From positions 39,922 to 103,921 of the forward strand of contig NZ_WHOB01000082.1 in NCBI RefSeq assembly GCF_013141775.1: a stretch of 64,000 bases of DNA. The letters run 5' to 3'. The stretch is from Paenibacillus phytohabitans (GTDB lineage: Bacteria > Bacillota > Bacilli > Paenibacillales > Paenibacillaceae). The notes under the pieces were generated by a model. The model did not search any database and was not told where the DNA came from. It saw nothing but the letters and a program-made list of their open reading frames with translations. This document shows, in pieces, positions 4,026-45,733 of this stretch. Both the position numbers and the translations under genes were made by a program. Positions within the stretch are counted from its first letter, which is position 1. Every line of letters begins with the position of its first letter.

Positions 4026-4985
4026 ATGATACGAACGCTTGCGGTAACACATAAGGGCGAGGTGCTGACTGACCTGCCGCTTCAGAGTATAGTGCTGGAT
4101 AACTATGCCTGGATTTGGGCGGATTTTGCCATGCCTACGGAAGAAGAGACATTGCTGCTGGACACTTATTTTCATTTTCACCCGCTGGCTATTGAAGACT
4201 GTATGCATGTGCTGCAGCGTCCGAAGCTGGATTATTACGAGGATGTGCAGTTCTTCGTGCTGCATGCGCTTAATGAGCGTACGCTGGAGGCGGAAGAGGT
4301 CGACCTTTTTCTCAGCAAAAAATTCCTCGTTTCCTACCATCACCAGAATAAATCGGAAATGGAGGAAGCGTGGCAGATGGTTCAAGCTGAAATTCATAGC
4401 CGTAAGGGCTGGTCGGGCGGGCCGATGGCTGCTGCTTACACTGTAATGGACAAGCTGGTCGACAGGTATTTCCCGTCACTGTACACCCTGGAGGATGAAC
4501 TGGCAGATCTGGAGAGCAAGAGTGACAGTGAATCGGTGGAAGAGCTGATGAGTCAGGTGTTCAACGTGCGCGGAAGACTGCTCAAGCTGCGCCGGACGAT
4601 CGTGCCGATGCGTGATCTGATGTACCGGATTGTCAACTCGCAGCATGTGCAGAGCAACGGGGAGGAGCGGATCTACTTCGGTGATATTTATGATCATCTG
4701 CTGAAGCTGACCGACATGATTGAAGTTGACCGGGAAATGACCGCCGATCTGCGTGACAGCTACATCTCGCTCAACTCCAACCGGATGAATTCCATTATGA
4801 AAACACTGACGGTAATCACTACCGTATTTATGCCGCTGACGCTGATCGCCGGAATCTACGGGATGAACTTCAGGGTAATGCCGGAGCTGGACTGGGATTA
4901 TGGTTATTTCGCGGTATTGCTGCTGATGCTGGTGCTGGGAGTAGGGATGTTCAGGTGGTTCCGGCGGAGCGGCTGGTTTAAGTGA
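4026..4985 (+). CDS. corA: CorA-family magnesium/cobalt transporter.
   Basis: GMN signature 'YGMNF' followed by two C-terminal TM helices. GGTGGAGG RBS sits 8 nt before ATG 4026. Confidence 0.9.
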   Translation: MIRTLAVTHKGEVLTDLPLQSIVLDNYAWIWADFAMPTEEETLLLDTYFHFHPLAIEDCMHVLQRPKLDYYEDVQFFVLHALNERTLEAEEVDLFLSKKFLVSYHHQNKSEMEEAWQMVQAEIHSRKGWSGGPMAAAYTVMDKLVDRYFPSLYTLEDELADLESKSDSESVEELMSQVFNVRGRLLKLRRTIVPMRDLMYRIVNSQHVQSNGEERIYFGDIYDHLLKLTDMIEVDREMTADLRDSYISLNSNRMNSIMKTLTVITTVFMPLTLIAGIYGMNFRVMPELDWDYGYFAVLLLMLVLGVGMFRWFRRSGWFK

Positions 4986-5100
4986 AACCGTGCGAGAACC
5001 GGACAAGGACCGGCGGTATAAAAGAATGGTTATGGCTGACGACGCATGGGTATTCATGGAATACAGCGGTCCGGCAGCAGAGAGAAAAGGCGTGTTAAAC

Positions 5101-5122
5101 GCCGCCGCTTAAGAACGGCGGC
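5101..5122. terminator. GC hairpin GCCGCCG-cttaagaa-CGGCGGC spanning the 3' end of the minus-strand gene. Possible bidirectional terminator.
   Basis: 7-bp perfect stem seen directly in the sequence. T/A runs are weak. Confidence 0.35.
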
Positions 5123-5659
5123 GCTTAACAGAGGAAGGGGCCCCGGTTTTGCGGCTCTTGGAGGTATTTTTGCGGCGCTGCGTGGTTGGGCGTCTTTTTT
5201 TGCGCCGTTTGGGGGTATACAGTGCCGCATCTTCTTCCGCCGCAAGTGCTCCCGCTGCGCTTCCCTTGCCTTTGCCGAATCCGCCCATCACCAGCTTCAC
5301 CATCGGAGCCATCTGTGAAAAGCCCTGCATGACCTTCTGTACCTTGCCCATGGAGTTGACGATTCCGTCAATCCCGCCCATCCGGTCGACAATTCCCTTG
5401 ATCTGCTCCATATTCGCGAGACTCCCGAGGTTGCCCAGCCCGCCCAGCAGACCGCCGGCTTTCGCAGTAGCAGCTTCGGCAGCGGGTATAGCAAGTGCAG
5501 TATCGGCAACTTCTGCACCGAAGGCAGGCAGTATTCCGGGTTCTCCGGGAAGCGGGGCAGGCGCGTAGGAAGAGAGGCCCGGATAGGGTGACGGATTGTA
5601 CGGCTCAGCCAGTGAACGCCCTTCCCTGCGGGAATGATTATAGTAATGCTCAGGCATAA
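5109..5659 (-). CDS. Hypothetical Pro/Gly/Ala-rich low-complexity protein with a strongly basic Lys/Arg C-terminal tail. Possibly spore- or nucleic-acid-associated.
   Basis: ORF with RBS-like AAGGAATGTGAT before ATG 5659. Composition 'GGLLGGLGNLGSL...' and C-terminal 'KRRKKRRPTTQRRKNTSKSRK'. No recognisable enzymatic motif. Confidence 0.5.
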
Positions 5660-6086
5660 TATCACATTCCTTCGTTAGTGGTTTGCTATACTGTATGTCA
5701 TGGGCGAACATACGGTATAGACGAATGCCCGGGTAACCGGGATACTAGCGGAAAAGGGCGAATGCCTACAAGAACCCTCTGGAAGTGAAGAAACCGTGTC
5801 CATGCTTGATTTCGTGAGGTTTTGTAGTACTATAGTTAAGGCGGTAGAACCTAGGAATCAGAGGAAGAAGGCCGTAAGCTCCATTAGTGGTGTGCGCCCG
5901 GGGTGGACGTTTGTCCATCATTTTCGTTCTTTACAGCGTGAAACCGTTAATGCTTGAAAAATGTGCTCCAGTGCAATATAGTAGAGGCAAGATAGTCACA
6001 TTAAGTTTATGCTTCCGAGTATCTAATTTGTACGAAGCTTAATCAGTGATGCTAATGCTGACCAAACTTTTAGGGGATGATTAACG

Positions 6087-12853: not shown

Positions 12854-14755
12854 TCAATACACGAGCACGCCCGCACCAAGCACGGATGTGTTCAACACGG
12901 AATTGCCGGCCAGAAATACCTTTTGCAGATTAGGCAAGCGGCTTAAGGTTTCTATATTGGAAATGGCATTGTTCTCCAGATGAAGCTCTTCGATGGCCTG
13001 CCACTTGCTCATGAACTCCAGAGAAGCCAAATTGCTGTCTTGCAGGGTGAAGGAACGCAGAGCGGACAGGTTGGAGAAATAAGGAAGCGCCTGGTCAACT
13101 TCACTGACGGAGTTATTGTTTATGCTAAAAGAGGGCCGGTCTAAGGTCAAATGCTCAAGCACGCTGTTCGCCGCGCCTGCCTTTTGGACGAAATCGAGAC
13201 GGCATTCCGAGCATACCAGCGTATTCACCTGCTTCAAACGAAATAAGGCATCGCTCTCCTTATACAGCGACGAATCGTAGATGCTTAGTGTCTTCAGGCG
13301 GGTCAAGTCGTCCAGGGCGTCAAGCTGGGCCATTTCGTCGATGTCCCAGAGGGAAAGCTGCGCAAGCTCCGGAAATTTCCTGAGAGCGGCCATATCGAGC
13401 TCCGCACTTCCGCCCCGGATTGTCAGGGCGGTTACGGCAGGCGCTTTCAGTCCGGGGAGAAAGTCGCCGGGTATTTCGACCTGCCTTACGCCCGGCAATG
13501 TCAGCGCTTCTGCCTTCTCGTAGTACCCGGACAACGTGAATTCCCGCAAAGAGGGCAGGCTGTTCACGGCCGCTACCGAGCTAAGCTGGCTTAAGGAAGC
13601 CAGGCGGAGTGTGGTAATGGAAGTCTTTCCGGCCAGAGGCTTCAGATTGGAAAAATTCAAATTTTCCGTGTCAAGCATTTGCAGAGCAGGCATGTTTTGC
13701 ACAAAGTCGATGGACTTTACATTGGTCAGATAAGAAAGGTGAAGCTCCTGAAGCTGGGTTAAGGCGTACAGCGGCTGCAGGTCTGTGGCTTCACTGTGAT
13801 GGATGGCCAGGGATGACAGCCCGGTCATGGACGATAACCACCCCAGTTCATCGACAAAGGTAAGCGACAGGGACTTCAGCGGCAGCTTATTCAATAAATG
13901 AAAATCCGTCACAGACTCATCCACATAGGTAATGGCCAGAGAGCTTAGATTGGGGAATTCCAGCAACATCGCCAATTCCTGATTGCTGCGAAGCTGGGTG
14001 GTTAGCTCCGTAATTTTAGACTTATCGCCAAAGTAGCGGGAAAATGTGCTGAAGGATTCGTTAAAGGCACCGCCATAGCTTTTTAATCCGGCCATATGGG
14101 CAAACGTTGTTTGGTCCGCCTGGGAGATTTCGTAGGTATCCATCAGGTTCAGTGCCGTCAGCCCCTTAAAGGCTTCGAAATCCCGCTGATCGATCCGCTG
14201 GGTATTCAGTCTTTTGTCCTGGGTAACATAAGTGATCTTCTCGGCCCGCTCATTGCTGAAGGGGTCGGAGAGGCTGTAGGTGAAACGCCACTGGTCATTC
14301 TCCGATTGATCTACGCTTAAATAGCGCAGACGGGCCAATTCTTCTTCTGTCGGCATTGCAGAGCCTTTATCCAAGATCTCCCGCAAAAAGGAGAGCAGGA
14401 CCTCGCTTTCGGGCATCTTCCGCACAGACAGATTGGCTTCTGTTGTGTGCTGAGGGGAGTCTAAGCCGTAATAGAAATAAGTACCGATAGCGCCTGATAT
14501 GACGAGCAACAGGATAAGTACCAGCCTTAGGGGGACGGAGACAGAGACGGACGGCTTTGGCGTGGCCGTGGCCTCAGGAACTGTCCCGTGATAATGGTTA
14601 ATGGTCTGATCCACATAGTAGACATGATTTTGCTTCAATAGAAGCTCTGTATGGCAATAGGGACACTTGAGGATCGTACCTTCCTTGTATTCAATTCTTC
14701 CGCTGCAATTGGGACAGTTTAACGGAATAAATGCCACGAATGCCTCCTCCTTCAT
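12854..14755 (-). CDS. Membrane-anchored leucine-rich-repeat (internalin-like) protein with an N-terminal zinc ribbon.
   Basis: 'CPNCSGR...CPYCHTEL' zinc ribbon, one TM helix, then ~20 LxxLxL LRR units. An alternative GTG start at 14737 has a better RBS. Confidence 0.6.
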   Translation of the reverse strand: MKEEAFVAFIPLNCPNCSGRIEYKEGTILKCPYCHTELLLKQNHVYYVDQTINHYHGTVPEATATPKPSVSVSVPLRLVLILLLVISGAIGTYFYYGLDSPQHTTEANLSVRKMPESEVLLSFLREILDKGSAMPTEEELARLRYLSVDQSENDQWRFTYSLSDPFSNERAEKITYVTQDKRLNTQRIDQRDFEAFKGLTALNLMDTYEISQADQTTFAHMAGLKSYGGAFNESFSTFSRYFGDKSKITELTTQLRSNQELAMLLEFPNLSSLAITYVDESVTDFHLLNKLPLKSLSLTFVDELGWLSSMTGLSSLAIHHSEATDLQPLYALTQLQELHLSYLTNVKSIDFVQNMPALQMLDTENLNFSNLKPLAGKTSITTLRLASLSQLSSVAAVNSLPSLREFTLSGYYEKAEALTLPGVRQVEIPGDFLPGLKAPAVTALTIRGGSAELDMAALRKFPELAQLSLWDIDEMAQLDALDDLTRLKTLSIYDSSLYKESDALFRLKQVNTLVCSECRLDFVQKAGAANSVLEHLTLDRPSFSINNNSVSEVDQALPYFSNLSALRSFTLQDSNLASLEFMSKWQAIEELHLENNAISNIETLSRLPNLQKVFLAGNSVLNTSVLGAGVLVY

Positions 14756-15072: not shown

Positions 15073-16059
15073 TTACCAGGCCCGTCCAGCCTGCATCGTC
15101 AATTGTACCAATTCCTCCAGCAGCTGCTCCTCCAGACTGATGATTTCACACATTCTTCTATGAATCTTCTCCCGCCCGGCCGGCTTATTGCCGGAGCACA
15201 TCACCTTGATCATGAATTGATTAATCAGATCCCACTGCTCTCCTGCATGACGGTAGCCCTCCGCGGCCCGGGAGAGTGCAGGTACAGAAGCCTCGCGGTT
15301 AAGCAGCTGCAGGAACTGGCTGAACCGGATCCGGCTGATGGGCAGGGCGTTGGCGTACAGCTTGAAGCGGGAACCGGCCTCGGCAGAATTATCGGCGGGG
15401 ATTCCTGTATGCAGATAGGTCCCGGCATAGGATCTGAGGTTAGCAGGAACCTCGCCCGGCTGAACCTGATTGGTTGGATCTGTCAGCATTCCTTGAAGCG
15501 TAGTCTGCCAATCCGTGTATGAATGCGTAGACTCACAACGGTCAAATAAGGCATAGAAATGGCAGGCCTGCTCAAGGATATCGAAATCTATTGCTTCAAG
15601 CTCTTTGCCATAGTAGGCATCCGTCAGATAGATGATGTTACCGGGCCGGTCCAGTCCAACAGCGAGACAGGCATGGCTGGTATGCAGCCTGCGGAAGGCC
15701 ACACACCAGGGGCAGTCATAAGAATCGAAGCCGACCAGCACCGGCATTCCCGAAGACAGCCGGCTCTCCAGAAGGTCAAGCATAAAGTCCTTATCCATCG
15801 CCGGCCCCTTCCGTTCAATATAATGGAATAGAAGGCCATGATACGCAGATAGGGATTCTGTACTGATCCGCGGCAGCACTAACCGCTCAATTAACGGCTG
15901 ATCCGGGGACTGCTGTTCTGCAAAGGACATCTGCCAGGCATTGCCGTACATGCACTTGCTGTCCTTGCCCTGCCACTCTGCAACAGACTGGATACAGTCA
16001 TCAATACAGCTGCGCAGGGTAGGATAGGGCGTACTTTTAATGGGAGCAATGTTCAGCAC
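15073..16059 (-). CDS. Hypothetical protein, possibly BtrH_N/DUF4872-like (papain-like acyl/aminoacyl transferase fold). Overlaps the 3' end of the AraC gene by 23 bp.
   Basis: ~330 aa with an N-terminal Cys-containing segment 'LRSCIDDCIQS'. The family call comes from length, architecture and context (adjacent carrier protein plus ATP-grasp). Not verified. Confidence 0.35.
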   Translation of the reverse strand: MLNIAPIKSTPYPTLRSCIDDCIQSVAEWQGKDSKCMYGNAWQMSFAEQQSPDQPLIERLVLPRISTESLSAYHGLLFHYIERKGPAMDKDFMLDLLESRLSSGMPVLVGFDSYDCPWCVAFRRLHTSHACLAVGLDRPGNIIYLTDAYYGKELEAIDFDILEQACHFYALFDRCESTHSYTDWQTTLQGMLTDPTNQVQPGEVPANLRSYAGTYLHTGIPADNSAEAGSRFKLYANALPISRIRFSQFLQLLNREASVPALSRAAEGYRHAGEQWDLINQFMIKVMCSGNKPAGREKIHRRMCEIISLEEQLLEELVQLTMQAGRAW

Positions 16060-16996
16060 TGCTCATCATCTCCTTTGCCGACAAAAAGTGACTCTGCAAC
16101 CGGTTTCGATAAGAGGCAGGAGTCATACCGCTATATTCACGAAATAGCCGGTAAAAATATTTCATGTCATAAATTCCGACCTCCAGGGCAATGGACTGTA
16201 TCCCAAGCTCTGTGAACATCAGCAGGAGGCAGCTATATTTCATGCGGATTTCCTGGAGCATCTGGATATAGGACCTGCCGGTCTTAATTTTGAATAATCT
16301 CTGAAACTGGCGGGAGCTCACCGCAATCTGGCGGCTCATCTCCTTCAGTGTGATTTTCTCTCTGAAATGACTGATCATATACAGGATGACGTCATGCAGC
16401 GGATCATAGTCTATTTCGGGCTGCTGAGCGAACGGAAGGGCGGCTGCGGGCATTATGAGGTCTGCGAGTTCAAATAGCAACGGGTATAGCTGCTGTTCGT
16501 CCCCAAGTGAGCCGCAGCTCTGCATCTCATGCATACGGCGGAGCAATAAGGCCAGCTCCATGCTGCTCTCCCTATACCCGAACCATTGCTTGACCTCCAG
16601 AAGCTCCAGGAGCGGGAACATCTCTTCTTCAGAAAAGGGTTCCGGCAGCCTCCTGAGCATCCTGCCAAGCTCAGGCCTGAGCATACAATTGTAGATGAGG
16701 AGCGGCTCTGCACCGGTCAGATCCTGCGGCTGGAAGACATGGGAAACCCCGGGCGGTATAACTAACAAATCCCCTTGCATAACCTGCATTTTATCCTCAT
16801 CCGCTTGGTGGATGCCTTCCCCCTGAACCACATAGGCGAGCTCTACAAAATCGTGCTGATGACGTACGGAAGTGACCGTTTCCTGAGTCAGGAGCATTTG
16901 TACCGGCGAACAGGAGTCAAATAGATATTCCCCAGTAAAGACCGGAAAAACTTCCATAACACAAACCTCCGTTTCCTGCTTCCTTAAGATAGACAT
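16037..16996 (-). CDS. AraC-family transcriptional regulator with an N-terminal cupin ligand-binding domain and C-terminal HTH.
   Basis: Cupin segment 'HQHDFVELAYVVQGEG'. C-terminal AraC HTH 'ITLKEMSRQIAVSSRQFQRLFK...YFYRLFREYSGMTPASYR'. Confidence 0.85.
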   Translation of the reverse strand: MSILRKQETEVCVMEVFPVFTGEYLFDSCSPVQMLLTQETVTSVRHQHDFVELAYVVQGEGIHQADEDKMQVMQGDLLVIPPGVSHVFQPQDLTGAEPLLIYNCMLRPELGRMLRRLPEPFSEEEMFPLLELLEVKQWFGYRESSMELALLLRRMHEMQSCGSLGDEQQLYPLLFELADLIMPAAALPFAQQPEIDYDPLHDVILYMISHFREKITLKEMSRQIAVSSRQFQRLFKIKTGRSYIQMLQEIRMKYSCLLLMFTELGIQSIALEVGIYDMKYFYRLFREYSGMTPASYRNRLQSHFLSAKEMMSSAEHCSH

Positions 16997-17114
16997 CTGG
17001 AATCCATCCTAGTATATCTGAATATTTTGGCGTATTCAACCATATATTAACAGTCTGCTATTTGGTATATTCATCCTATTCATTCCTATCATGCCTACTG
17101 AAAGGGGTATACAC

Positions 17115-17357
17115 ATGCAGCAAAAGGTTATTGAGATTATCGCGGAAATCAAGGAGGAGCCGGGCCTGCGTCAGACGCTGAGCGGAGCTTCCGATCTGAC
17201 GCTGGACGCCGCACTGGATTCGCTGCAAATCATCAACTTTATTCTGAGAATCGAAGATGAATTCGATGTCGAAGTAGACTTTGATACCTTTGATCTTGAG
17301 CATTTGAAATCGGTGGACCGCTTCTCCGCGTATGTCGCCGAGCTTGCTGTACGATGA
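17115..17357 (+). CDS. Acyl/peptidyl carrier protein with a phosphopantetheine attachment site.
   Basis: 80 aa, acidic, with 'LDAALDSLQI' (DSL serine). AAAGGGG RBS. Its stop overlaps the next gene's ATG (ATGA). Confidence 0.75.
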   Translation: MQQKVIEIIAEIKEEPGLRQTLSGASDLTLDAALDSLQIINFILRIEDEFDVEVDFDTFDLEHLKSVDRFSAYVAELAVR

Positions 17358-18703
17358 AGCACGCTGTACACTGCGGCAGCCTGGAGTCGGAACGGTACTG
17401 GCGGGAGGAAGACCTGGCTGCGCTGCCATCCGTTCCTGATGCGAAGGCTCTGGCTATCGTGCAGGCCATGGATGAACTGCTGTTTGTCTTCTGCGGGAGC
17501 GGAGATATTCTATTAACCCGCCATGGGATGGACAAGGCTCAATATGACTATCTGCAATCTCTCAATTATTCATTCAAGACCAATATGAATCCTTTAACCC
17601 TGGGCGTGGAGGCACCTGGCACAGCACAGAACGCACTGAATGCAATGAATGTATTCGAGCTGCTGGGCAGGCTGAACCCCGGGCAGGAGCCGGACAGGTT
17701 AATACCGGAAGGAGCATGGCTTGAGCCCTTTGCCGTGCTTCCCGGAACGCATGAGGCGGTTAAGCGGTATAAGCTTCAGCCCGCTCTCCCGGATGAACAG
17801 ACTGTGCGCAAAGTGAACACCAAAACCTACTCTGCTGCTATGCGGGACAGGCTGCTGCTGCCGAATATCGCTGTTGTTGTCCATAGCGCGGAAGAGCTGC
17901 TGCAATCCGGACAAGCGCTGCTGGAGAAGGGGGCTTTTCTGATCAAGGATGAGTATGGTGTATCCGGCAAAGGCAATCAGCTCGTGGACACTGAGCGGAT
18001 ATTGCGCCGGATTGCCGGGTACCTGGAATCCAGCCGGAACCAGGACAAACGAATAAAGTTTGTGCTCGAACCGCTGCTGGACCGGGAGACCGACTTCTCC
18101 TGCCAATTTCACATTGATCCGGAAGGCCGGATCTCGATATTGTCCGTTCAGCAGCTGGTCAACCATGGCTTTGCCTTCGGAGAGTCCCACTCCCCGGAGC
18201 CGGCTCTGCTCGAAAGGCTGGACCGGGAAGACTATTGGGAGATCATGCACAGCATTGGGCGGGAGCTGTATGCAGACGGTTACTTCGGTGATGTATGCGT
18301 GGATTCCATGCTGCTGCGTGACGGAAGCCTCGCCCCTCTGGTCGAGATCAATGCCCGGAAGTCGATGAGTCTGATCAAGCATAATGTAGACCGCCAGCTC
18401 AAGCAGGAAGGAATGCATACCTGCCTGTTACAGGTGCCGCTGGCAACCATGGGCGAGGTTCATTATGCAGAGCTGCTGGGGCGGCTTGAGCGGGAAGGCA
18501 TATTATTTTCGCTGGGAGCGGGGGAAGGCGTGATTCCGTTGGCTTCGGGCACACTCCAGCCTCCTGACCCGTCCCGGTCTGCCGGTTCCACTAAGGGCAA
18601 GCTGTATGCCGCACTCGCTTACCGGGATGAAGACAGCAAGCACAGACTCACCCGCAAGCTGGACGAATCGCTTCTGCGCTCGGGCTACACTATACTGCGA
18701 TAA
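17354..18703 (+). CDS. ATP-grasp family ligase, putative carrier-protein aminoacyl/carboxylate ligase (BtrJ-like role).
   Basis: Glycine-rich loop 'LIKDEYGVSGKGNQL' and Mg-binding 'LVEINARKSMS' (E-x-N-x-R). 449 aa. Translationally coupled to the carrier protein. Confidence 0.6.
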   Translation: MKHAVHCGSLESERYWREEDLAALPSVPDAKALAIVQAMDELLFVFCGSGDILLTRHGMDKAQYDYLQSLNYSFKTNMNPLTLGVEAPGTAQNALNAMNVFELLGRLNPGQEPDRLIPEGAWLEPFAVLPGTHEAVKRYKLQPALPDEQTVRKVNTKTYSAAMRDRLLLPNIAVVVHSAEELLQSGQALLEKGAFLIKDEYGVSGKGNQLVDTERILRRIAGYLESSRNQDKRIKFVLEPLLDRETDFSCQFHIDPEGRISILSVQQLVNHGFAFGESHSPEPALLERLDREDYWEIMHSIGRELYADGYFGDVCVDSMLLRDGSLAPLVEINARKSMSLIKHNVDRQLKQEGMHTCLLQVPLATMGEVHYAELLGRLEREGILFSLGAGEGVIPLASGTLQPPDPSRSAGSTKGKLYAALAYRDEDSKHRLTRKLDESLLRSGYTILR

Positions 18704-18719
18704 AGAAAGGGACCCTCCA

Positions 18720-19841
18720 ATGAATAACACCGTGACGATTCTATGCTCTGGTTTTGGTCTGGGCTTCTATGTCCCCGGCCTGCTGATGGAACGGAGACTT
18801 ACCGCACTTGGCATCCAGGCGGAGATTGAGGTTTTTGAAACACTCATGTCCGACAGCAAAAAACAGCAGACAGACAACAGCCGCAAAGCGTACCAGCAGA
18901 GCTTTGCCGTAGCCTTGACCTCGCAGAAAATACCGGGTGATATCCGGGGCAGCCTGGATGCTGCGGCCGTGGAACATTTATTACAGCAATGGAAGCAGGA
19001 AGAACGGCAGCGCTTCATTGTATTATCCGGGCATTGGGTGCATGTCATGGACAGGTACCGTGAACTGGCCGGCTTTCCTGTGGAGGCTGACCTGCTCTAT
19101 ATTGATGCCGACCTCTCGCCGTCATGGAAGAATCTCCGCAGGCTGAATCCCGGTTACGCGGAAGGCTACCGCGAAGTAATTATGTATGACCCTGCGGCAA
19201 GGGAGATTCTATGCAGCATAGATGCCGGACCCGCGGAGGCATTGCCCGCTGCGGCCAGGAACGGGAGACTGGTTGTTCATGGCGGCGGCTGGGGAATTGG
19301 CACCTTCCGTGAGAAGTTTGATAGCCTGGAGTCGGCAGGGTATGAACTGGATATAGCCTCATACAGTCCTCAGGAGATTGGAGAGGCCGTCCATGGAAGA
19401 CGTTATTATATGAACGATCCGGAGTGGCGGACCTGGAAGCGTGACAGCAGCGGGCAGTATACCTTCCCGCCTTTTGCAGAAGTAACCGTCAGCCAGCCGG
19501 ACCGCTATCCGCCCTGCCGTAACTACCAGGACGGGATGTATGGCGTCATCCGTCAGGCATTCGCAGTTATCAGCAAGCCCGGTGGAGGCGCCCTGATTGA
19601 TTCACTGGCCTCAGGCACACCGCTGGTGCTGCTGGACCCTTTCGGCCCGCATGAGAAGATTAACAGCGATCTGTGGGTAGAGCTTGGGTACGGCATCCGG
19701 TACGGGGAGTGGGCCGAGATGGGCTTTGACCGTGAGGCACTGCGGAAGCTGGCGGACAACCTCCAGTCAGCCAAGGGCCGGTACCCGGATTATGCGGCAA
19801 GCTATGCGGAGCAGCTATCCGCAGCAGAAGGGAGAAGCTAA
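18720..19841 (+). CDS. GT-B glycosyltransferase, GT28/MGDG-synthase/UgtP-like.
   Basis: C-terminal 'ISKPGGGALIDSLASGTPLVLLDPFGPHEKINSDL' matches the MurG/UgtP donor-binding region. The N-terminal 'ILCSGFGLGF' occupies the position of the GxGH loop but lacks the His. Confidence 0.6.
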   Translation: MNNTVTILCSGFGLGFYVPGLLMERRLTALGIQAEIEVFETLMSDSKKQQTDNSRKAYQQSFAVALTSQKIPGDIRGSLDAAAVEHLLQQWKQEERQRFIVLSGHWVHVMDRYRELAGFPVEADLLYIDADLSPSWKNLRRLNPGYAEGYREVIMYDPAAREILCSIDAGPAEALPAAARNGRLVVHGGGWGIGTFREKFDSLESAGYELDIASYSPQEIGEAVHGRRYYMNDPEWRTWKRDSSGQYTFPPFAEVTVSQPDRYPPCRNYQDGMYGVIRQAFAVISKPGGGALIDSLASGTPLVLLDPFGPHEKINSDLWVELGYGIRYGEWAEMGFDREALRKLADNLQSAKGRYPDYAASYAEQLSAAEGRS

Positions 19842-21034
19842 TGCAGCCTACCAGTAGAGTGAGCCTGGACGCCAAGTCCTTTGAGGCCCTGAAACGTACG
19901 ATTAAGAATGTGGTGGTCCCGCACAGGGAACGCAAGCTAGATCCAGGGTTCAAAACCGTTATGCCGGAGATTATGTCCCTGAAGCTGACCAACCGCTGTA
20001 ATCTCCGCTGCAAGCATTGCTACCAGTGGAATGAATCCGGCTATCATCATGATATGGACACCGCCGAGCAGAACCTCGATATGGATGTGGAGATGATCCG
20101 GAGGCTGCTGGAGGAGACGGATGAAGCGCAGTCCCGCCTGTATTTATGGGGCGGCGAGCCGCTGTTTCACCGGGATACCAAGCAGATTCTGGAGCTCCTG
20201 CAAGAGCATCCCCGGGACACCACGATCTGTACCAATGCCTATCTGATTCCTAAGTATGAAGAGGAGCTGTGTGCAATCTCCGACAACCTGGAGCTGCTGA
20301 TTCCGATCGAGGGGTTCGAGGCGGAGCATGATTTGCTGCGCGGCAAAGGTTCCTTTCAGAAGGTGATCGAGAGCGTCGAACGGCTGCTCGAGCTGCGCAG
20401 GCAAGGCCGCTTCCGCGGCCGGATCTCTGTGCACAATGTGATTAATGACAATATGATCGGCAGATTGTATGAGCTGGTGGAGTTTTTTGAGCACAAGGGC
20501 GTCGATCTGGTACTGCTCTGCTTCCCGTGGTATATCTCTGCGGACACCAGCCTGGAAATGGACCGGTTCTACGATGAGCACTTCCAGTGGCTGGCGGAGC
20601 TTCCGCCGGATCACCGGAGCAGCTGGCATGCCTTCAAATACCATATCAAACCGGAGAATGTCACAAGGCTGACCGAAGACCTGAAGCGGATCAACAGCAA
20701 CACCTGGCATAATACCCGAATCCGTTACCAGCCGGGGCTCGACTTTGATGAAATCGAGGATTTTGTGGCGGGCAAGCCGATGCTCTCCCGCAGTACATCG
20801 AAATGTCTGGCGCTCAGTACCCGGGTGGATATTGCTCCGAACGGGATGGTGAGTGCCTGCAAATTTTTTGGCGAGCTGGCCATTGGCAATGTGAAGGAGC
20901 AACCGCTGACGGAAATATGGAATTCAGCCCGCTACGACAGGCTGCGGCGGATTCTGGATGAAGGCTTGTCGCCGGCCTGCTCCAAATGCAATGTGCTGTA
21001 CCTGAATACCTATGCTGCCCTGACGCATGTATGA
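19841..21034 (+). CDS. Radical SAM enzyme with a C-terminal SPASM/twitch auxiliary-cluster domain.
   Basis: 'CNLRCKHCY' CxxxCxxC motif. C-terminal Cys-rich 'SACKFF...CSKCNV'. Start overlaps the upstream stop (TAATG). Confidence 0.8.
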   Translation: MQPTSRVSLDAKSFEALKRTIKNVVVPHRERKLDPGFKTVMPEIMSLKLTNRCNLRCKHCYQWNESGYHHDMDTAEQNLDMDVEMIRRLLEETDEAQSRLYLWGGEPLFHRDTKQILELLQEHPRDTTICTNAYLIPKYEEELCAISDNLELLIPIEGFEAEHDLLRGKGSFQKVIESVERLLELRRQGRFRGRISVHNVINDNMIGRLYELVEFFEHKGVDLVLLCFPWYISADTSLEMDRFYDEHFQWLAELPPDHRSSWHAFKYHIKPENVTRLTEDLKRINSNTWHNTRIRYQPGLDFDEIEDFVAGKPMLSRSTSKCLALSTRVDIAPNGMVSACKFFGELAIGNVKEQPLTEIWNSARYDRLRRILDEGLSPACSKCNVLYLNTYAALTHV

Positions 21035-22044
21035 AGAACGGGTGTGATCAGCCTGCCTATAGGCTCGGTATCCTGGGTGCCTCGAATATTGCTGTACCCG
21101 CCATGCTGGAGCCAGCGCGGGTTGTGGAGAAGGTGCGGATAGCTGCAATCGCCAACCGGACATTGGAAAAGGCAGTGAAACTGGCGGAGGCTTACCAGAT
21201 TCCTTATGTGGCGGGCAGTCTGGAGGAGCTGCTGGAGCTTGGCGGTCTGGATGGGGTATATATTGCACTCAGCAATGAGCTTCATGCAGAATGGGCATTC
21301 CGGGCATTGGAGGCGGGGAAGCATGTATTGGTAGAAAAGCCGATGTGCCTGCATCCCGAAGAAGCTGAACGGTTACGGCTGGTAAAAGAAAGCTCCGCCG
21401 CTCCGAAGCTCGCCGAAGGTCTCATGATTGCCTTCCACCCCTGGCAGCAGGCGCTTAAGTCCATAGTCGACTCCGGGCAATTCGGCCCGCTCTATAAGAT
21501 CAGTACAAGAATATCCGTACCTGCCAAGGACAGATATGCCGGGAATTACCGCAGTGTCAAGGCGAAGGGCGGAGGTGCTTTTGCCGATCTGGGCTGCTAT
21601 TGGCTGCAGTTTCTGCAGACCCTTATCGGTCTTCAGCCCAGTGAAATCAGGGCGAAGTCTGCTTTTGACGGGCCGGAGGGCTGTGATTGGACCTTTCAGG
21701 CGGCGCTGCAATATGAGAACGGTCTGGAAGCTGAATGTCTGACTTCCTTCGAGCTGCCCTTCCGGGCTTCGCATACCCTGCATTTCGCGCAGACAGTGCT
21801 GACGGTCCCGGATTTCTTCCGGCCGGTCAAAGGCTTCTACAAAATCAAAATACGGCATGATCTGCCGGACAACCGCAGCACCCTGTGTGAATTCGAGCCG
21901 ATGAACTATTATGTCAATCAGCTGGAGGCTTTCGCAGAAATAATGAGCGGGCAAAAGGCGGAGAAGCTGGAAGCTACATGGGAACGGGTACACCTGCAAT
22001 CCCTGATCATGGCCGAGGCGCAGCAGCACCGGGTTTATCTATGA
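21031..22044 (+). CDS. Gfo/Idh/MocA-family NAD(P)-dependent oxidoreductase.
   Basis: Rossmann N-terminus 'LGILGASNIAVPA' and 'GKHVLVEKPM' motif. ATGA overlap with the radical SAM gene. Confidence 0.8.
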   Translation: MKNGCDQPAYRLGILGASNIAVPAMLEPARVVEKVRIAAIANRTLEKAVKLAEAYQIPYVAGSLEELLELGGLDGVYIALSNELHAEWAFRALEAGKHVLVEKPMCLHPEEAERLRLVKESSAAPKLAEGLMIAFHPWQQALKSIVDSGQFGPLYKISTRISVPAKDRYAGNYRSVKAKGGGAFADLGCYWLQFLQTLIGLQPSEIRAKSAFDGPEGCDWTFQAALQYENGLEAECLTSFELPFRASHTLHFAQTVLTVPDFFRPVKGFYKIKIRHDLPDNRSTLCEFEPMNYYVNQLEAFAEIMSGQKAEKLEATWERVHLQSLIMAEAQQHRVYL

Positions 22045-22114
22045 AGTAGCAATCTGCCCCTGGCCCAAACGTCAAAACAGCGATTCTCCATCATCGGAGA
22101 GTCGCTGTTTGTTG

Positions 22115-22912
22115 TTAACGGTCCTGCAAGGAAGGAGGCTGCTCTATCCAAGAGCGCTCGTTGCTCACCACATAAATGCCCAGCGCCTGCTCGAAGGTAA
22201 GGCCGTGATTATAGAAAGCCAGCACCTTCGCGGCGAAGCGCATACTCTTATCTGCGCCGGGCGACTGCAGCAGCTCTGCAGCGAGCTTACGGAAGTCCTT
22301 CGGCTTAGCTTCTGCAGCCTCAACAGCATCCAGCAGCCCCTTGTGGCTTGGAAAGAGCATCCGGTTATAGGCCAGGATCATTCGCCCGCTGAAGAAGACC
22401 AGGTTGCTGGCCGTGTGAGCGAGCAGGTAGGCGTCGTTCTTCCGGGCCGCTTCTTTGGCGAAATAGAAAGCATACAGGAAGATCTGGGCGCAAAAGTCCC
22501 GCAGATTGTGTTCCCGGTTCTCTTCAGGATAGATTGGGATTCGGGCAACCAGCTCGCCCAGCTCCGGGATTCTGGAGAATAGTACATCCGATCCGGTAAA
22601 AGCATACCTCGTCGGCTCGTTGCCCCGCCCCGCGGCAAGCTCCAGGAACCGGAGGTTGATCACTTTGATATCGGCGTAACCGCCTTCATAGGTACTGACT
22701 TCCCGGTCTACGTAGGACAGCCTATTCTTCCGGTCATACTCTTCATAGGCCTCATCGGTGAATACCAGATGAACATCCACATCCGAGGTCTCCTTGGCGG
22801 TTCCCTGGGCTACCGAACCGCTGGTGATTACTGCCAGGCAGGAAGGGTCCTTCGCCTGCTTCTCCACCAGCTTCTCCAGCGTCTGTCTATGGTGCGCATA
22901 CATCTCTTTCAT
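22115..22912 (-). CDS. Pol-beta-superfamily nucleotidyltransferase (aminoglycoside/lincosamide nucleotidyltransferase-like).
   Basis: 'ITSGSVAQGTAKETSDVDVHLVF' matches the G[SG]...SD[IV]D nucleotidyltransferase signature, followed by a helical C-terminal domain. Confidence 0.6.
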   Translation of the reverse strand: MKEMYAHHRQTLEKLVEKQAKDPSCLAVITSGSVAQGTAKETSDVDVHLVFTDEAYEEYDRKNRLSYVDREVSTYEGGYADIKVINLRFLELAAGRGNEPTRYAFTGSDVLFSRIPELGELVARIPIYPEENREHNLRDFCAQIFLYAFYFAKEAARKNDAYLLAHTASNLVFFSGRMILAYNRMLFPSHKGLLDAVEAAEAKPKDFRKLAAELLQSPGADKSMRFAAKVLAFYNHGLTFEQALGIYVVSNERSWIEQPPSLQDR

Positions 22913-32447: not shown

Positions 32448-33065
32448 ATGAATAATAAGGTATATCTATATGTGCTCGACACCATGGCAGACTGGGAGAT
32501 AGGGTATTTAACTGCCGAACTGAACTCGGGAAGATACTACAAGAAGGGGCAAGCCCCATCTAAAATAGTTACCGTAGCCAATGAGAAGACGCTTATCACT
32601 ACAATGGGCGGACTGGCAATAATGCCTGACATCACGGTGGATGAGTGCAGCATTACAAGCGCAGATGCCTTGATTCTACCCGGTGGAGAGACATGGACCG
32701 AAGCCATTCATAAGCCCATCCTCGGGCTTGCCGCGAGATGTATACAGGAAGATATATTAGTGGCAGCGATTTGTGGGGCTACAATGGGGCTTGCCCAGGC
32801 TGGACTATTGAATTCACGCCCACATACAAGCAATGATCTGGAGTACCTCAAAATGATCTGTCCCGCGTACACTGGCGAAGAGCTCTACCAGATGCAGTCT
32901 GCTGTAACGGATGGCAAGCTGATCACTGCCTCTGGAATAGCGCCGCTAGAATTCACTGTACATGTCTTGAAAGCCCTGGATGTAATGGCTCCAGAAAAAT
33001 TGAAGGCCTGGTATAGTCTCTACAAGACTCAGGAAGCTAAGTATTTCTATGAGTTGATGGGATAA
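32448..33065 (+). CDS. DJ-1/PfpI-family protein (class I glutamine-amidotransferase-like fold).
   Basis: Nucleophile elbow 'AICGATMGLA'. GAAGGAGG RBS. Confidence 0.8.
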   Translation: MNNKVYLYVLDTMADWEIGYLTAELNSGRYYKKGQAPSKIVTVANEKTLITTMGGLAIMPDITVDECSITSADALILPGGETWTEAIHKPILGLAARCIQEDILVAAICGATMGLAQAGLLNSRPHTSNDLEYLKMICPAYTGEELYQMQSAVTDGKLITASGIAPLEFTVHVLKALDVMAPEKLKAWYSLYKTQEAKYFYELMG

Positions 33066-33077
33066 GAGTAGTTAATG

Positions 33078-33112
33078 AAGCGCCCTCTCTTTACGGAGAG
33101 GGTTTTTCTGTT
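33078..33112 (+). terminator. Rho-independent terminator at the left edge of the AT-rich island.
   Basis: CCCTCTC-tttacg-GAGAGGG followed by TTTTTCTGTTT. Confidence 0.65.
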
Positions 33113-33196
33113 TGTCCGGCCAGGGATGGCAGGACATCTTCTGGACATCTATAAGTAGTTGTGGGGGGATTTGCCGTGCTCCACTATAGGGTGAAT

Positions 33197-33760
33197 TTAA
33201 GTTGCAGTTTTCATGTTACTGCGTAGAATTTTGAAATCTTCTAATATATTGGAGATTCTTAGAATCATATCTCTATTCATATCTTGTTCTGTAGGGTTAT
33301 TTGGTAAGTACAAGCCCCACTGCTGAAACTTGCCCTCTAATAGAACAAATCCGGATACATGAGCTCCAAAACCATTTATTCTTGCAGATTCAAGAGTTAA
33401 TCTGTCGTCATGAAATACATTCACCAGTAGATTCTCAGTCCCCATGAAAAATACCGGATACGTTATGTTACTGAAAAAATCTTTATATTCCTGCTTGGCT
33501 GCTTCAGCCAGATAATCCTTTGCAATGATTAAGCCATCATAATTTATATTATGATCTTCAATAATATCTTTGAGGCTTTTGGGTATGTAGCTTAGATTTC
33601 TAATGTTATCAAAAGGAACATCACCAACAACTGCAATTTCTAACTGGATTGAAGGGGGATTATAAAGCTCCTCCGTCTGAGGCTCATTTACAATTTTGAT
33701 GTCACAGCTTACAAACAACACGGATAACAATATAAGAAGTAATAACATTTTGTTTTTCAT
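33197..33760 (-). CDS. Putative lipoprotein, hypothetical.
   Basis: Signal peptide with lipobox 'LFVSC'. AT-rich. Confidence 0.5.
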   Translation of the reverse strand: MKNKMLLLLILLSVLFVSCDIKIVNEPQTEELYNPPSIQLEIAVVGDVPFDNIRNLSYIPKSLKDIIEDHNINYDGLIIAKDYLAEAAKQEYKDFFSNITYPVFFMGTENLLVNVFHDDRLTLESARINGFGAHVSGFVLLEGKFQQWGLYLPNNPTEQDMNRDMILRISNILEDFKILRSNMKTAT

Positions 33761-33882
33761 TAGTGAGTATCCTTTTTTGTTTTATTATAATGGTTACTTT
33801 ATATTTAAAAATATAGAAAAATAATCCTTTTTGCAAGTGGATAATTAACTCGTTTGAGCCTCGAATGATAGGAGGAAGGAAA

Positions 33883-34191
33883 ATGAATGAAATAACCTCT
33901 CATAATTGTAATCTGAATATTTGGGCTCATCTGCCTGATGAAGTATGGAATACAGTTGCTAATATTTATGAGCGTATGCCTGGTTGGAGAGGGTACATAG
34001 ATGGGATTCCACACTGGTTTGGGCAGGAAGATGAGGATGTTTATATTCAGGCATCCGTTGAGCCAAGTGGATTATCATTCTTTGCTCGAATGAATCAGAG
34101 TGATTGGGATTCTTGGATTGGAGCGTTTAAATCAGAAGCAACTAAAGTGTTAGGGTTTGAGGTGGGGGAGCCTGAGGATGGGTTTGTGTAG
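33883..34191 (+). CDS. Hypothetical small protein.
   Basis: ORF with GGAGGAAGG RBS. No recognisable motif. Confidence 0.4.
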   Translation: MNEITSHNCNLNIWAHLPDEVWNTVANIYERMPGWRGYIDGIPHWFGQEDEDVYIQASVEPSGLSFFARMNQSDWDSWIGAFKSEATKVLGFEVGEPEDGFV

Positions 34192-34246
34192 TATGAAATT
34201 TTAGAAGGTAAGGCAATTCATAGATAACTCGAAAGCGGGTGTAAAC

Positions 34247-34819
34247 ATGAATATAAACCAAGCGATTAACGTTATAGATAAGGAATTATCTCAAACATTA
34301 AGTGACTACCAACACTGGTTTACTTTAAATCCCGAAGAACTATCCTTTAAACCTCAGACCGGATGGAGTATTGAACAAATATTAGAGCATGTAACACTAA
34401 CCAATCACTTTTTATTGATCCTAATAAGAAAAGGGACTCGGAAAGCAATAGAACTATCAACAAAGAAAGATTTAAATACAATAATAGAATCAAGCCAAAT
34501 TAATTTACAAGAGCTTGATGCGATAGCTATACATAAGTCTTTTGATTGGATCAGACCAGAACATATGGAGCCTAAAGGAGAAACAGAACTAGGACAAATA
34601 AGCGCATTACTAGATAATCAAATTAACGAATGTAAAGAGCTTTTGAAAGAGATGAGAAACGGTGAAGGAATACTTTATAAAACTACAATGACGGTAAATA
34701 GCTTAGGCAAGATTGATGTTTATCAATATATCTATTTTCTGTGCCAACATGCCAAACGCCACATTGTACAAATGCAAAAAGTAACGGATGAGTATAGCAA
34801 ATTAAGTGAGGCTGAGTAA
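34247..34819 (+). CDS. DinB/YfiT-like (DinB_2 superfamily) metal-dependent four-helix-bundle protein.
   Basis: His triad context 'EQILEHVTLTNHF' and C-terminal 'CQHAKRHIVQMQ'. Confidence 0.45.
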   Translation: MNINQAINVIDKELSQTLSDYQHWFTLNPEELSFKPQTGWSIEQILEHVTLTNHFLLILIRKGTRKAIELSTKKDLNTIIESSQINLQELDAIAIHKSFDWIRPEHMEPKGETELGQISALLDNQINECKELLKEMRNGEGILYKTTMTVNSLGKIDVYQYIYFLCQHAKRHIVQMQKVTDEYSKLSEAE

Positions 34820-35000
34820 TTCAGATTCATGGAATCAGCATTTGATTTGGTGAATTGAGTTAAGGACTTCTGATTATCAGGAGTCCTTTTCTGTGTAATT
34901 TTAGGAATTTCATGGATTTACATTGAGGATTGGGCTATCATTATTTTGTGCAGAGCAAGTGTTAGAGATTGAATTAGATCAACATGAAGAGGTGCTAGAA

Positions 35001-35330
35001 ATGGACGAACTAATCGAAAAAATCATCCAATTCCGCGACGACAGGGACTGGAAGCAATTCCACGATCCCAAAGATCTGGCGCTCTCTATCTCGCTAGAGT
35101 CTAGCGAACTGTTGGAACTCTTCCAATGGAAGAACAGCCAGCAAGCCATAGAGCAACATTACTCCGACATGCAGGACGAAATCGCTGATATTCTCATCTA
35201 CACGCTAACGCTCGTTCATGATTTGAATATCGACGTAAAGGAAGCTGTCCTTCAGAAAATAAACAAAAACGCGGAGAAATATCCGGTATCCAGTTCCAAG
35301 GGAAGTTCGCAAAAAAGTAAGCGGCAGTGA
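35001..35330 (+). CDS. MazG-like nucleotide pyrophosphohydrolase (small YpjD-type).
   Basis: 'ESSELLELFQW' and 'EIADILIYTLTLVHDLNIDV' MazG helices. GAAGAGGTG RBS. Confidence 0.65.
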   Translation: MDELIEKIIQFRDDRDWKQFHDPKDLALSISLESSELLELFQWKNSQQAIEQHYSDMQDEIADILIYTLTLVHDLNIDVKEAVLQKINKNAEKYPVSSSKGSSQKSKRQ

Positions 35331-35349
35331 ATGAATAGGGGAGAACTCC

Positions 35350-37242: not shown

Positions 37243-37339
37243 GGCAATTGGGGGCGATAGAGAGTTATATTATTGATTTGAAAAGATTGAGGAAAGATTG
37301 ATTGGAGAGGGGGTAACCCGGAGCCATTCTGCCGATCCT

Positions 37340-37690
37340 CTGTTTTGTTATGGATGGGGATTAAAAGTCCTTGAGCAAACTGAAGCAATCACTGGAGGAC
37401 TCTTTCTATATCTTGCGTTAGAGAGAGAGGGGGAATGTGGCACCAGGATACCGTTATCTGCATGATAAATCAGGGATTTGTTATATCACGTTAGATAAAA
37501 AGAACATGCTCAAACATGAGTGATAATACAAATGCTATCTGATGGTATCAAACAGAGCTGTAGGTTAAGGATGATCCAGATACCCAAATCCCTATCACTG
37601 TGACGAGGTTGAAGCGATCAGACAAGCAAAGGGCCAGTGCCAGAGGATCTCTAATAGTAAGGGGCAGAAGCAAAAAAAGGACTTAAATTG
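37340..37690 (+). pseudogene. Degraded paralog of the 27502-28071 gene, including its RBS region, at about 75-80% nucleotide identity with in-frame stops.
   Basis: Direct alignment to 27490-27810, for example 'ccgttatctgcatgataaatcagggatttgttatatc' versus 'ccgttatctgcctgataaatcgggaatctgttacatc'. Stops 'tgagtgataa' and 'tag'. Confidence 0.75.
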
Positions 37691-37841
37691 GATATATCCA
37701 TACTGTTTTTTGCTAGTTATAAGACTATCGATAAAAGGGGAATATTCCATTTTTATATTCAAAGTAGAGCGACAGAGTTATAATACTTTCAGGTGTTACG
37801 GTTTAGAAAAGTATTACTAATAGTAAATACAGGGGATAAAT

Positions 37842-40898: not shown

Positions 40899-40912
40899 AG
40901 GAGAAGTATTAA

Positions 40913-45589: not shown

Positions 45590-45733
45590 GACGGAATCCA
45601 AGGTATACGTTAACTTTATGTTGGGGCTGTCCATGCGACAGTCTTTTTTTGTTGTGTATTTTTGGAAGGTAATCCTTCCCATATTGTCGAATTACCATAC
45701 ATATTGTAAATCCAGATGATATGAGGTTGGGCT

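Follow-up and report, generated by a model that had tools for sequence, protein, structure and literature searches.

The 64,000-nucleotide stretch of Paenibacillus phytohabitans DNA analyzed here (contig NZ_WHOB01000082.1, positions 39,922 to 103,921; hereafter the window) contains a compact gene cluster between positions 15073 and 22912. On balance, we think it likely that this cluster specifies an orphan non-canonical thiotemplated (NCT) pathway, which operates without a nonribosomal peptide synthetase (NRPS) or polyketide synthase (PKS) and makes an acylated glycoside. This reading draws on analogy with the butirosin and closthioamide systems, which likewise combine a papain-like ligase and an ATP-grasp enzyme with a carrier protein that stands alone. 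The thiotemplated logic is already known; the combination of core genes is new. The product is expected to be a small, soluble acylated glycoside and is probably aminoacylated. The features of the locus are as follows.

15073-16059, minus strand: orfX, the papain-like ligase candidate (328 amino acids, GTG start)
16037-16996, minus strand: AraC-family regulator, divergent from the operon
16997-17114: divergent intergenic region of 118 bp, presumably with promoters and the AraC operator
17091-17357, plus strand: carrier protein open reading frame (ORF), with a likely start at ATG 17115 (80 amino acids from this ATG)
17354-18703, plus strand: ATP-grasp enzyme (449 amino acids)
18720-19841, plus strand: glycosyltransferase (373 amino acids)
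19841-21034, plus strand: radical S-adenosylmethionine (SAM) enzyme (397 amino acids)
21031-22044, plus strand: Gfo/Idh/MocA oxidoreductase (337 amino acids)
22075-22110: 15-bp hairpin, AAACAGCGATTCTCC / GGAGAGTCGCTGTTT, seen by direct reading between the oxidoreductase and nucleotidyltransferase genes, which converge on it
22115-22912, minus strand: Pol-beta-superfamily nucleotidyltransferase (265 amino acids), convergent with the oxidoreductase gene

A first-pass annotation of this DNA described the first seven of these genes, and their coordinates and junctions are reproduced by the ORF list and by direct reading of the sequence. The 3' end of the AraC gene overlaps the start of orfX by 23 nt. 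The likely start of the carrier protein, ATG 17115, is located behind a ribosome-binding site, GAAAGGGG, at 17100-17107. Direct reading places an ATGA at 17354 where the carrier protein and ATP-grasp genes meet. The glycosyltransferase gene follows after a 16-nt gap (18704-18719) in which a second ribosome-binding site, AAGAAAGGG, precedes its ATG. It is joined to the radical SAM gene by a TAATG at 19839-19843, and the radical SAM and oxidoreductase genes share an ATGA at 21031. Judged from these junctions, the five plus-strand genes are translationally coupled. The hairpin at 22075-22110 is likely the shared terminator of both convergent genes and marks the end of the operon; it is missing from the output of a consensus terminator scan. 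Consensus matches to promoters and terminators were not above shuffled controls in number, the divergent intergenic region included, where there is one promoter-like match on the minus strand (17039-17011). Rfam contains no match to a riboswitch or other RNA across the whole window, and no cluster protein has membrane segments.

The product of the first plus-strand gene is a phosphopantetheinyl carrier protein, as annotated, with a Pfam PP-binding match above the gathering score (E = 4e-7). Its attachment serine, Ser36 of an LDSLQ motif, is invariant in 55/55 family members, and in NCBIfam searches it weakly resembles acyl carrier protein, DltC (E = 1.8e-7), and AsbD. The annotated identity of the 17354-18703 protein as an ATP-grasp enzyme also stands, though the protein is divergent and has no Pfam or NCBIfam match above threshold. 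Members of its family give weak matches to the PGM1_C, PreATP-grasp, and ATP-grasp Pfam models. It is 24% identical over 385 amino acids (BLASTP, E = 2e-20) to a PGM1-type ligase that bears all three of these domains in a Paenibacillus peoriae locus (L045), and its family profile matches PDB 8ynd, an 'ATP-grasp peptide ligase' (E = 1.4e-8). A glycine-rich loop (K198-D-x2-G-V-S-G-x-G-N) and a Mg-binding motif (E331-x-N333) are invariant in the family. Taken together, these comparisons suggest a PGM1-like layout that is recognized only by comparing profiles or folds. The family numbers 358 representatives (50%-identity clusters) at E <= 1e-30 among 1.84 billion proteins. The nearest relatives, at 85-90% identity, belong to Paenibacillus sp. 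22594, P. helianthi, P. jilunlii, and the riograndensis/sonchi group, and one metagenome record names a homologue with 83% identity after BtrJ. No other ligase belongs to the minimal six-gene set, and the start of the ATP-grasp gene overlaps the stop of the carrier protein gene; by this context, the ATP-grasp enzyme is the sole candidate in the cluster for loading the carrier protein.

The first-pass annotation placed orfX in the BtrH_N/DUF4872 class. This proposal holds at the level of the fold and fails at the Pfam threshold, from which the family has diverged too far. The BtrH_N (PF14399) match of orfX has E = 8.6e-4 and 20 bits against a cutoff of 29.7, and it covers profile positions 74-133 only. 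Paralogues of orfX in L045 and in a locus of the P. amylolyticus group (L023) are likewise below this threshold. Sequence searches of the PDB were uninformative: Azi29 and AziU3, both with E > 0.5, were the only hints from the single sequence, and the family profile returned only coiled-coil noise from the C-terminal helices. An AlphaFold2 (AF2) model of orfX built with 16 database homologues has a predicted local distance difference test score (pLDDT) of 83 and a predicted TM-score (pTM) of 0.83. Foldseek aligns this model over its full length with AziU3/U2 (E = 2e-9) and CcbD (E = 3.5e-6), with TM-scores of 0.59-0.65. In the paper on the CtaG structure, the same structural trio is reported (PMC12865890). 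Across 15 sequences of the orfX family, with identities as low as 20%, five residues never vary (C18, D21, H126, H129, and D147). In the model, C18 begins a helix, and H129 and D147 are located on adjacent strands. The candidate catalytic residues are Cys18 and, presumably, His129 and Asp147.

The model assigns orfX to the BtrH/CtaG/CcbD fold class, and it is predicted to act as a papain-like, carrier-protein-dependent transacylase or ligase. BtrH, AsbE, MllDE, and CtaG constitute one class of papain-like, carrier-protein-dependent (thiotemplated) ligases (PMC12865890; PMC7183216). CcbD forms the amide bond of the lincosamides by transferring a carrier-protein-bound amino acid to an amino sugar, and it employs a Cys-His-Glu triad with His131 (PMC12945683). 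Cys19 of CcbD, which we took from the PDB title of a C19S mutant structure, and His131 occur at positions nearly identical to those of Cys18 and His129 in orfX. The two proteins are 12-15% identical, however, and the third triad residue is Asp in orfX and Glu in CcbD.

The 373-amino-acid protein is, according to its predicted structure, a GT-B fold glycosyltransferase from an unclassified subfamily of the GT1/GT28 clan. It has no Pfam or NCBIfam match above threshold. Glyco_tran_28_C is weakly matched by 12 of 30 relatives, and relatives carry the automated name 'UDP-glucuronosyltransferase' at NCBI. The protein was initially described as UgtP-like or monogalactosyldiacylglycerol (MGDG)-synthase-like, and a resemblance to UgtP is seen only in the sequence of its C-terminal domain. 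Its family profile matches UgtP (PDB 9wde, E = 5e-6) in the C-terminal nucleotide-sugar domain only, and there is no match to an MGDG-synthase-type N-terminal domain. The best Foldseek matches of the AF2 model (pLDDT 89) are CalG3, SnogD, SpnG, CalG1, and MurG (E about 1e-9), and the first four of these are soluble GT1 natural-product enzymes. The earlier guess at the product was an aminoacylated sugar or glycolipid. The soluble GT1-like model and the lack of membrane segments make the glycolipid the weaker half of this guess.

The radical SAM enzyme matches the Pfam Radical_SAM (E = 1e-18) and SPASM (E = 9e-14) models above their gathering thresholds. Its CX3CX2C motif consists of C53, C57, and C60, and an auxiliary site is formed by C322, C340, C380, and C383 with the spacing C-x17-C-x39-C-x2-C. 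All seven cysteines are invariant in 79/79 orthologues. The seven-cysteine SPASM motif that holds two auxiliary clusters is absent, as there are only four invariant C-terminal cysteines. The family profile matches the C-terminal (auxiliary-cluster) domain of BtrN (E = 2.3e-9) and the core of SkfB (E = 2.9e-12). A twitch-domain radical SAM family is the best NCBIfam match; all NCBIfam matches are far below their cutoffs, and the weak ones include several peptide-maturase families. Despite the Pfam SPASM match, the four-cysteine pattern and the similarity to BtrN indicate a single-cluster, BtrN-like twitch domain. The radical SAM half of the original radical SAM/SPASM description is therefore retained, and the full SPASM half is not.

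The last plus-strand gene encodes the sugar-type dehydrogenase that was originally proposed, with matches to GFO_IDH_MocA (E = 3.5e-19) and GFO_IDH_MocA_C3 (E = 2.8e-17) that both exceed the gathering score. An EKP motif (E102, K103, P104) is invariant. The family profile aligns over its full length with PDB 4had (E = 1e-50) and with the 'sugar 3-ketoreductase' 3rbv (E = 6e-44), and by sequence this NAD(P)-dependent Gfo/Idh/MocA enzyme resembles sugar ketoreductases. A 90%-identity protein cluster that contains orthologues of the radical SAM enzyme (L004:12479-13672, 397 amino acids) also lists 337-amino-acid Gfo/Idh/MocA neighbors; this looks like a clustering artefact, perhaps from a fused or overlapping gene call.

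The regulator has a cupin ligand-binding domain and an HTH_18 domain, which agrees with its annotation as an AraC protein (HTH_18 E = 2e-18 and AraC_binding E = 9e-10, above the Pfam thresholds). The nucleotidyltransferase gives only generic matches in Pfam and NCBIfam, including NTP_transf_2 (E = 4e-6), and has no sequence relative in the PDB. A role in self-resistance or tailoring is possible.

These genes were compared across related loci by scanning one genome per species. The scan yielded 244 tblastn-confirmed relatives of the ATP-grasp enzyme, and the best 80 loci were examined; counts out of 80 refer to these related loci only, and counts out of 81 include the window. Genes were counted by tblastn with the window proteins and by clustering all ORFs of the loci. 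The 80 loci come from Paenibacillus, several Clostridium/Clostridia, one Lacrimispora, and one Eubacteriales genome. Conservation of the genes as a block, which the first-pass annotation had set as a test, is evident: the carrier protein, ATP-grasp, and glycosyltransferase genes are detected by tblastn in 80/80 loci. The radical SAM gene is present in 79/80 loci at 45-96% identity (79 to 80 depending on the count). The exceptions are L017, which is a short contig, and L068, which has a 24% match only. The oxidoreductase gene is found in about 60/80 loci by tblastn and in 58/81 by ORF clustering. The ATP-grasp gene is adjacent to and followed by the glycosyltransferase gene in all 80 loci. The carrier protein gene adjoins the ATP-grasp gene in about 53 of the 80 and the radical SAM gene in about 27.

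A papain-like ligase gene, from either the orfX family or the ORF families c7, c9, and c16, is found in 67/81 loci, and the core is co-inherited with carrier-protein-dependent ligases. The in-operon families c9 and c16 are linked to orfX by hidden Markov model (HMM) cross-hits. HMM searches gave no cross-hit for c7, which is linked only by its own sub-threshold BtrH_N match (E = 2e-4). In L018 and others, the six functions of the window occur together in one operon. The AraC gene is present in 17/81 loci and the nucleotidyltransferase gene in 16/81, always with AraC and in three different arrangements. AraC, orfX, and the nucleotidyltransferase are a sub-module that is specific to the clade of the window. 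The flanking genes for a leucine-rich-repeat protein, a beta-lactamase-like protein, a glycoside hydrolase family 5 (GH5) cellulase, and a major facilitator superfamily (MFS) transporter are not conserved with the cluster in the examined loci.

Many relatives carry additional genes. They include a second, PGM1-type ATP-grasp enzyme (21 loci), a second carrier protein (26 loci), an ornithine/diaminopimelate-type pyridoxal phosphate (PLP) decarboxylase similar to BtrK and CtaF (20 loci), an AMP-ligase (15 loci), ABC-2 type exporters (52/81 loci), and methyltransferases. Some variants have genes resembling those for nucleoside diphosphate (NDP)-sugar enzymes, which were assigned by sequence motifs only. 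In L045, from the P. polymyxa group, the PGM1-type ATP-grasp enzyme at 4487-5863 is accompanied by a second carrier protein and the PLP decarboxylase. L023 has an AMP-ligase/carrier protein/ligase set similar to AsbC/D/E or CtaI/H/G, a second radical SAM enzyme, and methyltransferases. In six loci from Clostridium/Clostridia and Lacrimispora (L054, L055, L063, L066, L075, and L079), a KASIII-like gene (c46) is found directly after or near the core. Five of these six are without a papain-like ligase, and L079 also has a c9-type gene on the opposite strand. This distribution suggests that the KASIII-like gene encodes an alternative enzyme for off-loading the carrier protein.

Several characterized systems share parts of this inventory. 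The butirosin cluster of Niallia circulans (BtrI/BtrJ/BtrK/BtrO/V/BtrH/BtrG) has, like the window, a stand-alone carrier protein, an ATP-grasp enzyme, and a BtrH-fold ligase, which in the window would also act on a sugar-type acceptor. Its BtrN is, like the radical SAM enzyme described here, of the twitch type with a four-cysteine auxiliary domain. The analogy with butirosin that was drawn at the outset has been strengthened by the relatives, which add a BtrK-like PLP decarboxylase, a second ATP-grasp enzyme, and a second carrier protein. Unlike the butirosin cluster, the window has no decarboxylase, monooxygenase, or gamma-glutamyl cyclotransferase, and its glycosyltransferase, oxidoreductase, and ATP-grasp enzyme belong to different, unclassified subfamilies. 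In agreement with the first-pass annotation, there is no 2-deoxy-scyllo-inosose synthase or aminotransferase among the ORFs at 10-26 kb, and the BtrK/BtrO/BtrG side-chain enzymes are also absent there. The product of the window cluster cannot be a 2-deoxystreptamine aminoglycoside.

The closthioamide pathway (CtaE/CtaH, CtaD, CtaF, CtaG, and CtaI) uses the same logic of carrier protein, ATP-grasp enzyme, and CtaG-like ligase, and its CtaI/CtaH/CtaG set is mirrored in those relatives that combine an AMP-ligase with a second carrier protein and a ligase. Unlike closthioamide, the window has just one carrier protein and lacks both a thioamide synthetase and a decarboxylase. The aminocyclitol and thioamide genes that define the butirosin and closthioamide clusters are absent, and the window cluster therefore belongs to neither. 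Petrobactin biosynthesis provides a further parallel in AsbC/AsbD/AsbE, in which an AMP-ligase and a stand-alone carrier protein work with a ligase of the CtaG class to acylate a free amine (PMC12865890). A trio of this kind is present in the L023-type relatives, and the window carrier protein weakly matches AsbD; unlike petrobactin, the window lacks AMP-ligase and siderophore synthetase genes and has sugar enzymes. The lincosamide enzymes CcbD/LmbD, which work with the CcbZ/LmbN carrier domain, offer an analogy for orfX in that they perform carrier-protein-dependent N-acylation of an amino sugar. The lincosamide carrier is loaded by an NRPS-type adenylation domain instead of an ATP-grasp enzyme, however, and the window contains no thiooctose or ergothioneine genes.

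Genome mining had already flagged this general class in 2020 as about 400 orphan clusters that pair a carrier protein with a CtaD-like ATP-grasp enzyme, and large orphan families among them carry a glycosyltransferase or a KASIII-like gene (PMC7183216). Both of these genes occur among the loci studied here. A stand-alone carrier protein is co-located with the ATP-grasp gene in all 80 related loci. The CtaG-like transacylase that, with or instead of a CtaF-like decarboxylase, typifies NCT clusters is represented by orfX in the window and by the ligases of the 67/81 loci. No CtaF-like decarboxylase is found in the window, and one is present in 20 relatives. The core of carrier protein, ATP-grasp enzyme, GT-B glycosyltransferase, twitch radical SAM enzyme, and usually oxidoreductase is undescribed in the searchable literature, in PMC7183216, and in database names. 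Relatives carry generic names, namely hypothetical, radical SAM protein, Gfo/Idh/MocA, 'peptide ligase PGM1-related', and 'UDP-glucuronosyltransferase'. The earlier statement that this gene combination does not correspond to a described pathway is consistent with these searches, which found no characterized cluster in the literature or database names. Overall, the first-pass annotation is well supported. None of the observations that it named as grounds for refutation was made; these were a product of orfX without the BtrH_N/papain-like fold, a 17354-18703 protein other than ATP-grasp, loss of the block in relatives, and a match to a characterized cluster.

In the pathway that we propose, a phosphopantetheinyl transferase encoded outside the cluster would convert the carrier protein to its holo form at Ser36. 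The ATP-grasp enzyme would then activate a carboxylate as an acyl phosphate and thioesterify the carrier protein with it. By analogy with BtrJ and CtaD, the acid loaded is most likely an amino acid; alternatively, it could be a uronic acid that the neighboring glycosyltransferase produces. This glycosyltransferase would, together with the twitch radical SAM enzyme and the ketoreductase-like oxidoreductase, build and redox-tailor the glycoside; the folds and motifs of all three are described above, and their substrates are ones that we infer from context. This tailoring may involve, for example, oxidation and then re-reduction of one sugar carbon. If orfX acts as its fold and putative triad imply, then Cys18 would accept the acyl group from the carrier protein, and the enzyme would deliver this group to the glycoside, at an amine or possibly at a hydroxyl, in the way that BtrH and CcbD act on amino sugars. 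AraC, which appears to be co-transcribed with orfX, would control expression, and the nucleotidyltransferase may modify the product or confer protection on the producer.

Several observations weigh against this pathway. The top structural match of orfX, AziU3, is not a transacylase. Three proteins that are central to the proposal fall short of database thresholds: orfX is below the BtrH_N gathering score, and the ATP-grasp enzyme and glycosyltransferase are below all Pfam and NCBIfam thresholds. In the window, orfX is located outside the plus-strand operon. Its subfamily (c11) is found in only 18/80 related loci, with distant paralogues elsewhere and none of any kind within 10 kb in 14. The cluster has no aminotransferase or deacetylase that could supply an amine acceptor. 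Finally, the carrier protein gene adjoins the ATP-grasp gene in only about 53 of the 80 loci, so amino-acid loading by the ATP-grasp enzyme is not the sole reading. A bolder version, which we regard as unlikely, is that the sugar unit is itself tethered to the carrier protein, tailored there by the radical SAM enzyme and ketoreductase, and off-loaded by the papain-like ligase or the KASIII-like enzyme, with the nucleotidyltransferase acting as a self-resistance or pro-drug enzyme. If this were true, it would represent unprecedented carrier-protein-templated glycoside chemistry and a new class of natural products that is widespread in Paenibacillus and some Clostridia.

A related and rather unlikely alternative is that the ATP-grasp enzyme activates a uronic-acid glycoside made by the adjacent glycosyltransferase, either tethering this sugar to the carrier protein or ligating an amine to it directly. 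The radical SAM enzyme and oxidoreductase would then tailor a carrier-bound sugar acid, and the papain-like ligase would off-load a uronamide. Such a scheme is consistent with the invariant adjacency of the ATP-grasp and glycosyltransferase genes (80/80), with the position of the carrier protein gene beside the radical SAM gene in about 27 loci, and with the family name 'UDP-glucuronosyltransferase', although this name is automated. Genes similar to UDP-glucose 6-dehydrogenase (9 loci) and to NAD-dependent epimerases/decarboxylases (23 loci), recognized by motifs only, occur in variants, but UDP-glucuronate genes are absent from the window cluster. There is a weak match of the window radical SAM enzyme to the glucuronide decarboxylase PDB 7vob (E = 8e-4), but this match is absent from the profile search at E <= 0.001. 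Moreover, the characterized ATP-grasp enzymes that are linked to carrier proteins, BtrJ and CtaD, all load amino acids (PMC7183216). It is distinctly improbable that the cluster instead decorates the cell envelope in a Dlt-like system, in which a UgtP-like glycosyltransferase would make a glycolipid or a sugar linked to teichoic acid and this sugar would be aminoacylated from a DltC-like carrier, with the ATP-grasp enzyme replacing DltA. The weak resemblance of the carrier protein to DltC (E = 1.8e-7), the ABC-2 type exporters in 52/81 loci, and a processive diacylglycerol glucosyltransferase as the best PDB sequence match of the glycosyltransferase are compatible with this function. However, no DltB/MBOAT-like or DltD-like membrane protein is encoded, the cluster proteins are without membrane segments, the UgtP match is limited to the nucleotide-sugar domain, and the glycosyltransferase model is nearest to soluble GT1 enzymes. 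The accessory genes (AMP-ligase, PLP decarboxylase, methyltransferases, and KASIII-like) are typical of secondary metabolism, and the cluster content is patchy and varies among species.

Two further explanations concern what kind of locus this is. An AraC-controlled operon for carbohydrate utilization or primary metabolism, in which sugars are the substrates of the oxidoreductase and the GH5 cellulase and the carrier protein, ATP-grasp, and radical SAM genes are unrelated neighbors, seems very improbable to us. AraC regulators with Gfo/Idh/MocA enzymes and glycoside hydrolases are common at Paenibacillus sugar loci, and a GH5/CBM3 cellulase and an MFS transporter are encoded just downstream, but the five plus-strand genes are translationally coupled and AraC accompanies them in only 17/81 loci. 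The core travels together across Paenibacillus and Clostridia, and the GH5, MFS, and upstream leucine-rich-repeat genes do not. Least credible of all is a cluster for a peptide that is made on ribosomes and modified after translation (RiPP), in which the radical SAM enzyme would mature a peptide that the ATP-grasp enzyme and glycosyltransferase modify further. The radical SAM core has its greatest similarity to SkfB and CteB, which are peptide maturases, peptide-maturase families are among its weak NCBIfam matches, and ATP-grasp enzymes and glycosyltransferases are generally known from RiPP pathways. Nevertheless, all of those NCBIfam matches are far under their cutoffs, and the auxiliary domain has four cysteines instead of the seven of SPASM. 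There is no small ORF at 15-22 kb besides the carrier protein, in a survey that did not include a specific search for RiPP recognition element (RRE) domains, and this only small gene encodes the invariant phosphopantetheine serine. The co-conserved partner of the core is a carrier-protein-dependent ligase.

The surroundings of the cluster have other features. Upstream, the segment 7525-9925 holds genes for a diacylglycerol-kinase-like protein and for a TRAM/U5 RNA methyltransferase. The same pair precedes the L023-type variant in nine loci of the P. amylolyticus/xylanexedens group (L026, L029, L039, L040, L042, L044, L051, L053, and L064), which suggests that different cluster variants share one chromosomal site. 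Just upstream of orfX, a minus-strand gene (12854-14755) encodes a 633-amino-acid, internalin-like leucine-rich-repeat protein with an N-terminal zinc-ribbon motif, and it is beside the cluster in no examined relative. Two islands of low GC content, at about 33000-46000 and 51000-54000 (GC 0.36-0.45 versus about 0.52 elsewhere), hold a 1018-amino-acid ResIII/RE_endonuc protein (37842-40898) and a 996-amino-acid AAA_11/AAA_12 helicase (51256-54246). They are probably horizontally acquired restriction/defense islands. A plus-strand tandem repeat of 234 bp (78 codons) occupies 61851-63971, to the window end, with 9.1 copies and 83% matches. Long ORFs on the opposite strand (61443-62834 and 61760-63118, minus) appear to be antisense artefacts of a gene on the plus strand that is repetitive and leaves the window, and a strong AT skew at 62-64 kb fits this interpretation.

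Few cases of non-NRPS/PKS thiotemplated assembly have been characterized. Butirosin and closthioamide use all three parts, and petrobactin combines an AMP-ligase with the same type of ligase. The orphan family described here is tractable, with a compact six-gene minimal version in the window and many variants in at least 80 species, and its ATP-grasp and glycosyltransferase subfamilies are outside the coverage of Pfam and NCBIfam. Solving this cluster would add a carrier-protein-dependent ligase for biocatalytic amide formation on sugars, would provide substrates of a BtrN-like twitch radical SAM enzyme beyond the aminoglycoside pathways, and would give a new class of metabolites from plant-associated Paenibacillus.

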